From Naegleria gruberi (lineage: Eukaryota), in assembly GCA_000004985.1 (NCBI GenBank), contig GG739249.1: DNA of 2,719 bases. One strand, 5' to 3'. Position 1 is the first letter of the stretch; each line of letters opens with the position of its first letter. Shown here piece after piece: positions 1-2,719 of the stretch. A program made the position numbers and the translations under genes. Under the pieces are notes generated by a model. It was not told the origin of the DNA. It did not search any database and saw only the letters and a program-made list of their open reading frames with translations.

Positions 1-92
1 CCTCCAAAATATTGTGCTGCATTAAGAATGACTTGTCTATCTCTCTGAAGTGTCTTATCTGCATAGGCAAAACCTTGGTGTTTGCTAGCCAT
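1..92 (-). CDS. 5'-partial ORF (ATG at 92..90, continues past window start), product begins MASKHQGFAYADKTLQRDRQVILNAAQYFGG. It is a DUF4116-like repeat unit and most likely the continuation of the 103..1914 gene after a 1-nt frame disruption. An in-frame ATG at 116..114 is also available and would overlap the upstream stop.
   Basis: The reverse-complement of 1..92 is an open frame with no stops. It matches the 'L+xD+xVVLxAVxQxG' repeat signature seen throughout the upstream ORF. Only 10 nt separate it from the TAA at 103..105, which leaves no room for a terminator or promoter. Confidence 0.5.
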   Translation of the reverse strand, partial: MASKHQGFAYADKTLQRDRQVILNAAQYFG

Positions 93-102
93 TACAACTT
101 CC

Positions 103-1914
103 TTATTCTTTTTCATTTCTGGGAGAGAGAAGCTTCAGAACACCTCCATGCTTGGTGACGGTTGCCATTACCACATCTATATCGTTCTTTAAGGATGGAT
201 CAATGAATGGGAAGGACATGGGTGATATTTTGAGGTGGCCAATAATTAGCTCTTTATCTTTCTTTTCTTCATCAGAAAGTCTCTCAATTCTATCTGTCAA
301 ATAATTCGTAGTTTTGACCTCTTTTGAGTTGTTTTTTGTCAGTTGCATACGATCCTCTTCATCTAACTTATGAGAAAGAATTTCAAATAAATTGGAGTTC
401 CTCTTGATGGCCCTTATTAAATATTCCTTATTATTACAATATTTTTCCAAATATTTTCCAAAATAATATGAAGAATCTACCACTCCACATTCGTATAGCT
501 CATCATCAAATGTGGTAATGAAAACCCAATTATAGGAATATTTTTTAAGTAGTGCTAATAAAAATTCTCTGTTTTCGAATAATGACTTGTCAAAATAGTT
601 GATTTCAATATAAAGAGAAGTTTCTCTTAGTATCCTAGACATGAGTGGTACGTCAGATTTCAAACTCGGATCAAAGTAATATAACAAGGATGGTTGCTTA
701 AGAATCATTTCTTTCTGCAATTCCAAGTAATCAGAATAGGATTCTTTGAAATCTGCATCAATTTTCATTTTTTGTGCTAGTTTCAATAGAAAGTTCACAT
801 CACTAACTAATTCCTTAGATTTTGAATAGTATTCAAAGAAAGAGCGGAATAAATTTATATTCCCTGCCAATATTCGAATCCAATTATCAACACTTAAACT
901 ATTAGATAAATAATTTGGAAATTCATATCCTCTTTCATATCTGCTTAACATAAACTCCTCATAATCCGAATATTTCTTAATTATTTCAGAAATTTTAGGC
1001 GAAATATGTCCCCAAGATATCATTTTACTCACAAGATTATCCATAAACTCTTTCCTTATCAATAGAGTTGGGCTAGCAAGCAAAAGAGCATCTTTCTGTG
1101 TTTCCATTGCCAATTTGACAATTTCCTCATCCGATCTCAATTCATTTGATGCAAATTCCAATGCCAACCCATTTTGTTTCACAGAAACAATTACAACATT
1201 TCTATTCGAATTGAATTCAGGAAAGTGGACCAATAACAATCCATTACTTAATACTACTCTAAGTACCAATTGTTCCTCAACTATTCCTACTGGAATAAAT
1301 TTACAAGATTCAATATTTTGTTTGAGAGCAATTCCAATCATATTTCTATCATTTTTGACAGATTCTCCACAATATTTCAATTGCATTCCATCTCTTTTCA
1401 ATACAGATTCAACAACAGAACGATCATTTCTAATTCTGTCATTTGCCAATTCCAAAACTCTGGGACAAGTTTCCAATCCCTTCAAAATCAATTCCTCATC
1501 GTCTCTCAATTCTTCTCTTGGAATTGTACATGCAAATAGAATACTTCCATCACTTTCCAATCCTGCCTTTATAATTTCTCTATCACATTTAAACTTTTCA
1601 TTTCGAATATGTTTCAAAGCATTTACACCAAACGATCTAACAGCCAACCATATTAATAACCTATCATTTTCATATTTTGATTCCAGTTTAGACAATTCCG
1701 AAGCACTTCTTCTCTTTACTCTAACTGCCATTCTCAGATATTGTACATTTTCATTGGTGAGATGTTGAGATCGGGAGTGAGATATTTTCTTCATCAATTT
1801 TAATAAACTTTTAAATAAATTGTGAATTATTTCATCGTCATCATTGATATCACCCTCTCTCGTTACAAGATAAACATCTGAAAAGTAATTGTCGTCAATA
1901 ACTTGTCGCCACAT
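103..1914 (-). CDS. Tandem-repeat protein, 603 aa from the first ATG. It carries ~9 consecutive ~24-aa repeats (aa ~60-287 of the 609-aa track ORF) plus more degenerate copies to the C-terminus, resembling DUF4116 (PF13475) repeats.
   Basis: Long uninterrupted minus-strand ORF with a TAA stop at 105..103. The track start at 1932 is TTG (not a eukaryotic start); the first ATG is at 1914..1912 with A-rich context (aaaaaaATGt). Internal periodicity: ENDRLLIWLAVRSFGVNALKHI / DREIIKAGLESDGSILFACTIP / DDEELILKGLETCPRVLELA / NDRSVVESVLKRDGMQLKYCG / NDRNMIGIALKQNIESCKFIP / NRNVVIVSVKQNGLALEFAS / SDEEIVKLAMETQKDALLLAS. The assignment to DUF4116 is from memory of that family's consensus, not from a search. 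Confidence 0.75.
   Translation of the reverse strand: MWRQVIDDNYFSDVYLVTREGDINDDDEIIHNLFKSLLKLMKKISHSRSQHLTNENVQYLRMAVRVKRRSASELSKLESKYENDRLLIWLAVRSFGVNALKHIRNEKFKCDREIIKAGLESDGSILFACTIPREELRDDEELILKGLETCPRVLELANDRIRNDRSVVESVLKRDGMQLKYCGESVKNDRNMIGIALKQNIESCKFIPVGIVEEQLVLRVVLSNGLLLVHFPEFNSNRNVVIVSVKQNGLALEFASNELRSDEEIVKLAMETQKDALLLASPTLLIRKEFMDNLVSKMISWGHISPKISEIIKKYSDYEEFMLSRYERGYEFPNYLSNSLSVDNWIRILAGNINLFRSFFEYYSKSKELVSDVNFLLKLAQKMKIDADFKESYSDYLELQKEMILKQPSLLYYFDPSLKSDVPLMSRILRETSLYIEINYFDKSLFENREFLLALLKKYSYNWVFITTFDDELYECGVVDSSYYFGKYLEKYCNNKEYLIRAIKRNSNLFEILSHKLDEEDRMQLTKNNSKEVKTTNYLTDRIERLSDEEKKDKELIIGHLKISPMSFPFIDPSLKNDIDVVMATVTKHGGVLKLLSPRNEKE
1072..1755 (-). repeat. Coding-level tandem array of ~9 DUF4116-like 24-aa units (nt span encoding aa ~60-287). 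Protein-level repeat; DNA-level identity is low.
   Basis: The repeat periodicity is visible directly in the translated sequence (see CDS entry). Each unit has conserved hydrophobic positions (VVL/IVL, AV/AL, G, AL/LL) and acidic/basic positions (ND+E / SDEE). Confidence 0.6.
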
Positions 1915-2106
1915 TTTTTTCTGTTTGTTCAAATGAAGATTTTTGAATAGTGTTTAATGCAAGATTTAAAGTTTAATAATAACATGTAAATATTCAAAGG
2001 AATTTAAATCCCTAAATACAGATGACAACCTTAATATTCCGAAAATTAAGATAATGAATGGCTACGGCCATATCACGATTCATGCACCTCATCCCGTCCG
2101 ATTTGA

Positions 2107-2152
2107 GAAGTTAAGCATCGTCTAGCCACATCAGTACTGAGGTTGGAGACAA
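2107..2152 (+). promoter_or_regulatory. Internal control region of the 5S gene (box A-like GAAGTTAAGC, intermediate element, box C-like TACTGAGGTTGGAGAC).
   Basis: Placed by position relative to the 5S start (+48 to +93), by analogy with the TFIIIA-binding internal control region of characterised 5S genes. The sequence blocks are conserved relative to vertebrate and yeast 5S. Confidence 0.55.
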
Positions 2153-2177
2153 CTTGGGAATCTGTGGTGCTGTAGTC

Positions 2178-2181
2178 TTTT
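2178..2181 (+). terminator. RNA polymerase III terminator (T4 run) at the 3' end of the 5S gene.
   Basis: TTTT immediately follows the helix I 3' strand. A second T5 run at 2212..2216 could act as a backup terminator. Confidence 0.65.
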
Positions 2182-2291: not shown

Positions 2292-2719
2292 TTAGAAAGA
2301 ATTAATCAACTTTTTAGCTTCAGAATCAGCAGAAGGACTTTGTCTTTCGTTGGCAACCTTCATAACAAGAGTCAAATTACATTCCAAAGTGACAACCAAA
2401 TCAGCTCCATTAACCTTGTAAGAATAGCCAAGGAAACCAGAAGATTCCTTACTTTCAGCATTGTGAACAACTCTGAAAATCAATTTTTCCAATCCCATGA
2501 AAGCATCCTTACAATCAGGATCCTTGATGAAAACCTTGGCAATTTCACTCATATTACTCAATCTTGGACATTCGGTTAAGAATTTGATGCAATTATTCAA
2601 CAAGGTATCTTCAGCAAATCTATCACCATACTTGTACTTGGTTTCAGTTGGCAATGCAGCAAGAGAAGCCCAATCCAACAAGATGAGCATCTTTGGATTG
2701 ACTTGTTGAAGATTCTTGG
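2292..2719 (-). CDS. 3' portion of a protein-coding gene (5' end beyond the right edge). Its last 142 codons end ...ADLVVTLECNLTLVMKVANERQSPSADSEAKKLINSF, with a TAA stop at 2294..2292. Product not recognised.
   Basis: The open frame continues through the window edge (cc aag aat ctt caa ... with no stop upstream of the track's Met at 2690). Amino-acid composition is balanced. Codon usage is strongly biased (TTG Leu, AGA Arg, GGT Gly, GCT Ala, CCA Pro, TCT Ser, GTT Val, AAG Lys), typical of a well-expressed gene in an AT-rich unicellular eukaryote. AATAAA-like signals lie ~80-90 nt downstream of the stop on the minus strand. Confidence 0.7.
   Translation of the reverse strand, partial: KNLQQVNPKMLILLDWASLAALPTETKYKYGDRFAEDTLLNNCIKFLTECPRLSNMSEIAKVFIKDPDCKDAFMGLEKLIFRVVHNAESKESSGFLGYSYKVNGADLVVTLECNLTLVMKVANERQSPSADSEAKKLINSF

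Follow-up and report, generated by a model that had tools for sequence, protein, structure and literature searches.

The 2719-bp window analysed here is one complete unplaced scaffold from the draft genome assembly of Naegleria gruberi, a free-living amoeboflagellate, with a GC content in the range of 28-39%. The N. gruberi assembly as a whole comprises 784 scaffolds and 1977 contigs (PMC6125883). More recent public reads exist for strain NEG-M, namely a Nanopore R9/R10 set (S-BSST1363) and EM-seq/WGBS sets cited in PMC12344493. The features recognised on this scaffold are collected in Table 1. The main one is a minus-strand gene for a protein built of DUF4116 repeats; the product of its long open reading frame (1914..103) shows 100% identity to EFC35425.1, which is annotated as 'predicted protein'. 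The 5S rRNA gene lies 145 nt upstream of the ATG of this DUF4116 gene. The neighbour gene at the right end, represented by EFC35426.1, is a member of a family whose proteins are about 178 aa long and of which N. gruberi has at least 12 annotated copies. Two ENA metagenome contigs with this family showed no 5S rRNA gene, since they break off too early.

Table 1. Features of the 2719-bp scaffold and the evidence for each
Feature	Position	Strand	Evidence and remarks
DUF4116 gene, upstream part (EFC35425.1 / XP_002668169.1 / NAEGRDRAFT_60095, 603 aa)	103..1914	-	ORF list; ATG 1914..1912, TAA 105..103
Extra-base site	120..123	-	Minus-strand CCCA = plus-strand T120 + GGG 121-123; abuts (GA)4 / (TC)4 run 123-130
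Premature TAA stop	103..105	-	Arises only through the frame shift; out-of-frame tail after LLSP is RNEKE, then stop
Gene continuation in the +1 frame; 44 codons without a stop, up to and past the scaffold edge	3..134	-	tblastn frame -3, three-way alignment
5S rRNA gene, full length	2060..2178	+	Rfam RF00001, 94.3 bits, E = 1.6e-20
Neighbour gene, 3' part, EFC35426.1 (132 aa from ATG 2690)	2292..2719	-	Open frame running off the right scaffold end

At the left end of the scaffold, the sequence-only reading had seen two minus-strand open reading frames as halves of a single gene, separated by a one-base frame disruption. Its description of the frames is accurate. Minus frame 1 does end in ...DPSLKNDIDVVMATVTKHGGVLKLLSPRNEKE (...KHGGVLKLLSPRNEKE) immediately before the TAA at 105..103, while the +1 frame, which follows a stop with SFSLPEMKKNKEVVMASKHQGFAYADKTLQRDRQVILNAAQYFG, is open from 134 to 3, at the scaffold end; the plus strand carries GGG at 121-123 and then AGAGAGA at 124-130, as had been noted. 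Deletion of one G of 121-123 gives, again as proposed, a continuous frame of 637 aa that reads ...GGVLKLLSPEMKKNKEVVMASKHQGF... across the former junction. This repaired frame leaves the scaffold end and has 89.8% identity over 636 columns to EFC41472.1, a paralogue described below.

The extra base itself can be located only approximately. Removal of T120, which in minus-strand terms is the A that follows CCC, is predicted to give the same protein as removal of a G, and with any one base of CCCA taken out the sequence becomes ...CTC TCT CCN GAA ATG, encoding LSPEM; the extra base can thus be placed only within 120-123. The repair restores CCA, the commonest proline codon of the gene (11 of 19). 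An indel within the adjoining (TC)n run was also considered and set aside: it would yield KLLLPEM, but the second paralogue, EFC48590.1, has KLLSPEM, which makes CCCA the parsimonious site.

With EFC41472.1 as query, tblastn aligns residues 4-603 in frame -2, whereas residues 596-638 fall in frame -3, with E = 2.9e-20 for this short piece. In the off-frames of the upstream part a stop occurs every 8-12 codons, the longest open run there being 28 codons as against the 44 of the continuation. This frame switch, together with the 44-codon open run, excludes a chance open frame.

Two annotated paralogues extend across the junction, and both are unbroken there. NAEGRDRAFT_58778 (EFC41472.1), a protein of 699 aa encoded on a scaffold of 362,555 bp, has 89% identity over the 603 aa of the upstream part and is continuous at the junction (...VLKFLSPEMKKNKEVVMASKHQGF...; ...GGVLKFLSPEMKKNKEVVMASKHQGFAYADKTLQRDRQAIL...; ...IDPSLKNDIDVVMTAVTKHGGVLKFLSPEMKKNKEVVMASKHQGFAYADKTLQRDRQAILNAAQHYGGILELL...), with 96 residues beyond. 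NAEGRDRAFT_78386 (EFC48590.1), 176 aa long, encoded on a scaffold of 707,703 bp and found by a search with the repaired tail, is likewise continuous (...VLKLLSPEMKKNKEVVMASKHQGF...; ...GGVLKLLSPEMKKNKEVVMASKHQGFAYADKTLQRDIQVILNAAQYFGG...; ...GGVLKLLSPEMKKNKEVVMASKHQGFAYADKTLQRDIQVILNAAQYFGGILELL...), and the two have in common an uninterrupted ...LSPEMKKNKEVV... at this point. It had been predicted that homologues, if the ORFs form one gene, would run through ...LLSPEMKKNKEVV... without interruption, and this is what both proteins do, each in a single frame.

The agreement is closest with EFC48590.1: in a gap-free alignment to the repaired tail, 113 of 115 residues are identical (98.3%). From the E codon at 119..117 onward the continuation corresponds to aa 77-115 of EFC48590.1 and to aa 600-638 of EFC41472.1. 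The scaffold and EFC48590.1 also have residues in common on which EFC41472.1 differs, namely KLLSP (KFLSP in EFC41472.1) and QVILNAAQYFGG (QAILNAAQHYGG in EFC41472.1).

None of the homologues found ends in ...SPRNEKE, though the protein searches are incomplete for N. gruberi copies: such word-index searches miss some of them, the full-ORF query having missed EFC48590.1 and the tail query both EFC35425.1 and EFC41472.1, so that copies which they do not show may still exist. Among metagenome contigs of JGI the junction had 0 matches, whether with CC or with CCN. Since the two paralogues are continuous and colinear across both ORFs, and no SPRNEKE ending was found, the two minus-strand ORFs belong to one gene, with a one-base insertion between them, and the frame disruption is confined to the 2719-bp scaffold.

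The frame-shifted continuation belongs to the DUF4116 repeat array. The 603-aa ORF matches Pfam PF13475 (DUF4116) with 176.2 bits in 6 stretches (cut-off 24.9), and EFC41472.1 does so with 272 bits in 9 stretches. The repaired tail scores 57.9 bits in 2 stretches and the truncated tail 36.8 bits in 1; the 38-aa continuation fragment taken alone reaches 18 bits (E = 0.0022), which is below the cut-off, and in combination with the upstream part it contributes a second DUF4116 stretch and 21 bits more. EFC48590.1, 98% identical to the repaired tail, carries PF13475 as well. In the truncated version the last DUF4116 unit is halted at profile position 46 of 49. The repeat register of 24 aa, said earlier to continue exactly through the junction, holds as an approximate periodicity; it is not exact, with spacings of 25 and 22 aa.

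The AlphaFold2 model of EFC48590.1 (mean pLDDT 90.9, pTM 0.82) is an all-helical solenoid, in which short helices form a continuous array from aa 21 to 172 with pLDDT >93. The residues at the junction, P76/E77, are found mid-array, where a helix begins. Judged from the model, a protein truncated there would lack 100 residues and 10 of the 16 helices. A sequence search found no relatives among solved structures, and a fold search gave no significant match, the best being 1lrv (E = 0.11). The latter is a 24-residue leucine-rich repeat variant, a hint only as a fold match. The DUF4116 family has no known function, and a literature search found no paper linking N. gruberi with DUF4116.

The 707,703-bp scaffold that carries EFC48590.1 also carries EFC48589.1, the closest copy of the neighbour protein EFC35426.1 among the 12 or more annotated (137 of 141 residues identical, 97.2%). 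The two have consecutive accessions on the one scaffold, which indicates that their genes are neighbours there too, and the EFC48589/EFC48590 pair mirrors the EFC35426/EFC35425 pair of the small scaffold; the gene order is the same as on the main scaffold. Compared in this way at the protein level, by gene order and amino-acid identity, the 2719-bp scaffold is a second version of the 707,703-bp locus; it could be another haplotype, a piece left unmerged or a duplicate of very recent origin.

The two versions do differ. Along the tail, one difference is private to the small scaffold (T, codon ACT at about 312..310, with A in both EFC48590.1 and EFC41472.1) and one is private to EFC48590.1 (I, with R in the others), and there are 4 differences from EFC48589.1 in the 141 aa of the neighbour. 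Another variant private to the small scaffold is the leucine codon CTC at 2687..2685. Because each copy has private differences, the small scaffold is a distinct sequence rather than a re-read of the same molecule. The EFC48590.1 model consists of the C-terminal 176 aa only, beginning at an internal methionine (MQLTKNN...), from which it follows that on the 707,703-bp scaffold the first 520 aa of the protein are either absent or broken up. The N-terminal part absent from that model is exactly the part that the 2719-bp scaffold supplies.

The gene encodes a protein of about 700 aa made of DUF4116 helical repeats. On the 2719-bp scaffold one extra base in CCCA (120-123) breaks its frame, giving the RNEKE tail and its stop and hiding the last 100 or so residues, about 40 of them on the scaffold and about 60 beyond its end. 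We consider it probable, at roughly 60%, that the extra base arose as an error of base-calling or assembly, within the last 120 nt or so of the scaffold where coverage is low, and is not a biological feature.

In draft Sanger contigs reliability is lowest towards the ends, where few reads make up the consensus, and the extra base is 120 nt away from such an end, within a homopolymer of G beside (GA)4. It is the sole disruption in 1.9 kb of coding sequence, and a real mutation would fall in this terminal stretch about 6% of the time if mutations were uniform over the 1.9 kb. Past the shift there is no sign of decay, the 44 codons being open and free of scaffold-private amino-acid changes. An artefact is favoured on these grounds taken together: a single defect, its position at the scaffold end, the homopolymer, the intact sequence downstream and the restoration of CCA. 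The earlier ranking, which put an indel error or a recent pseudogenising mutation first and recoding last, agrees with this evidence.

The second of these, that the extra base is real, is possible, at rather less than even odds. A recent +1-nt insertion in the C-run would then truncate the protein after LLSP, and the scaffold, being another haplotype or a duplicate of very recent origin, would carry a young null or pseudogene allele of a dispensable member of the expanded repeat family. Such a mutation would be in keeping with the scattered amino-acid differences from EFC48590.1 and EFC48589.1, which make the scaffold a distinct allele or copy, and with the homopolymer and dinucleotide runs, which are natural slippage sites. 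DUF4116 proteins are numerous in N. gruberi, so the loss of one copy would be tolerable, and the terminal 130 nt contain no scaffold-private substitutions and are not obviously of poor quality. Naegleria strains have also been described as mainly heterozygous diploids (PMC9928731). Against a real insertion count its position and its being the only disruption in the gene, as well as the intact frame downstream, which is identical to EFC48590.1 at 39 of 40 residues with no private change, so that the mutation, if real, must be extremely recent.

Much less is left of the proposal that there are two separate genes, one for a 603-aa protein ending in ...SPRNEKE and the other for a short DUF4116 protein starting from the ATG at 116..114 or that at 92..90. 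The public annotation does count the 603-aa product (EFC35425.1) as complete, and the second frame does have in-frame ATGs, but the paralogues EFC41472.1 and EFC48590.1 are unbroken at the junction and the split would fall inside a DUF4116 unit and inside the continuous predicted helical array, which makes two genes very improbable. The spacing of the ORFs weighs on the same side, though differently from what had been argued. The 10-nt gap given earlier is correct for the second ATG of the downstream ORF (92..90) but not for the first (116..114), which is upstream of the gene 1 stop, so that from there the ORFs overlap; and the argument that so short a gap could not hold a terminator and a promoter borrows a bacterial concept for what is here a eukaryotic nuclear scaffold (Naegleria). 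What remains of it is that, in a eukaryotic nuclear genome, the ORFs overlap or lie 10 nt apart.

Recoding is the most improbable of the three. Here the full-length protein would still be made, either because ribosomes shift by +1 (CCC-AGA to CCA-GAA) or because the polymerase slips on the C-run beside (TC)4. In principle a tRNA-Pro in the P site could move its pairing from CCC to CCA, and the frame downstream is intact. The shift lacks conservation, however, EFC41472.1 and EFC48590.1 both encoding the same peptide in a single frame, and the codon after the slip site is AGA, the commonest arginine codon here (28 of 40), so there is no 'hungry' or stop codon to stall the ribosome. Known +1 frameshift sites rely on a pause at a rare or stop codon. 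Programmed frameshifting is not known from nuclear genes of Naegleria, and a recoding event at this site, if true, would to our knowledge be the first in a heterolobosean nuclear gene.

An intron fails since all paralogue residues are accounted for on both sides and only a 1-nt 'intron' would fit, and a variant, ciliate-like code with TAA read as glutamine fails as well, the source being Naegleria, readthrough of the TAA not restoring homology, and a 603-codon ORF at 32% GC with no in-frame TAA or TAG pointing to the standard code.

Whether the extra base is an artefact, as we favour, or a real insertion, the consequences are for annotation. EFC35425.1 / XP_002668169.1 (603 aa) is a C-terminally truncated model of a DUF4116 protein of about 700 aa, and EFC48590.1 (NAEGRDRAFT_78386) is an N-terminally truncated one that is without 520 residues; joined, they would give one complete gene model. 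The 2719-bp scaffold is either redundant with the main-scaffold locus or complements it. The frameshift, if real, would add a further young null allele to a repeat family that is already expanded. The significance of the case is limited to annotation, with no bearing on an open biological question.

Like other PF13475 proteins, the product of the gene is a tandem series of half-units, each about 24 aa long and following the pattern L..D.E(I/V)VL.AV..NG.AL.YAS. EFC41472.1 is a full-length paralogue of the same architecture and shows what the complete protein is like, although it lies on a different scaffold and differs by three small indels and about 10% substitutions. EFC48590.1 resembles the scaffold gene in its near-identical tail and in having a copy of the same neighbour family alongside, but unlike it is in frame through LLSPEMKK. 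The one-base frame disruption is an ordinary thing. Frameshifted models at the ends of draft Sanger contigs have the same single-base homopolymer indel, flanked by unbroken homology to either side, and an intact copy at another place. Allelic and unitary pseudogenes present the same pattern as that seen here, and nothing separates the scaffold gene from the ordinary kind.

The gene at the right-hand end of the scaffold (annotated as EFC35426.1) encodes a member of a Naegleria-specific protein family of about 178 aa, in which no Pfam domain was found. At least 12 copies are annotated in N. gruberi, with 61-97% identity to the window's copy, and genes related to it are also carried by two ENA metagenome contigs, L001 and L002 (nucleotide identity 81% and 91%). 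Scaffolds of only 2719, 3039 and 10,548 bp carry three of the family copies, suggesting that the family is a dispersed repeat that breaks the assembly. At 2685-2687 (-), close to the right end of the scaffold (roughly 30 nt away), the window's copy has KMLILLDW. In nine of the ten further family members in the alignment the sequence is KMIILLDW, and the remaining one is the model annotated on the window itself. The substitution, private to the window's copy, could be a further end-of-contig error or a private variant.

Features of the window and the evidence for each
Feature	Position	Strand	Evidence
Right-hand gene, ~178-aa protein family	2292-2719	-	Family comparison
5S rRNA gene, full length	2060-2178	+	Rfam RF00001, 94.3 bits

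A 5S rRNA gene, which is outside the frame-disruption finding, separates the two protein-coding genes; it lies 145 nt upstream of the ATG of the DUF4116 repeat-protein gene and 113 nt downstream of the stop of that gene's neighbor. No 5S gene was found on the short contigs L001 and L002.

The sister DUF4116 copy on the 707,703-bp scaffold, NAEGRDRAFT_78386 (P0036), is modeled as the C-terminal 176 aa only, starting at an internal Met. Because the N-terminal ~520 aa are absent from that annotation, a gap or disruption at the locus is suggested, one that the 2719-bp scaffold might bridge. With the full 603-aa ORF as the query, P0036 was not among the matches of the word-indexed protein search, despite some 76 near-identical residues in common, and with the tail as the query the search missed both the window's own model (P0001) and the 699-aa paralogue NAEGRDRAFT_58778 (P0002); matches missing from such a search are weak evidence of absence.

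The window segment 3-330 (-) is the counterpart of the first 115 residues of the predicted P0036 model. Its C-terminal DUF4116 array is predicted, with high confidence, to be a solenoid of short helices. Comparison of this array with solved structures gave no significant match; the best-ranked structure, 1lrv, a 24-residue leucine-rich repeat variant, also falls short of significance.
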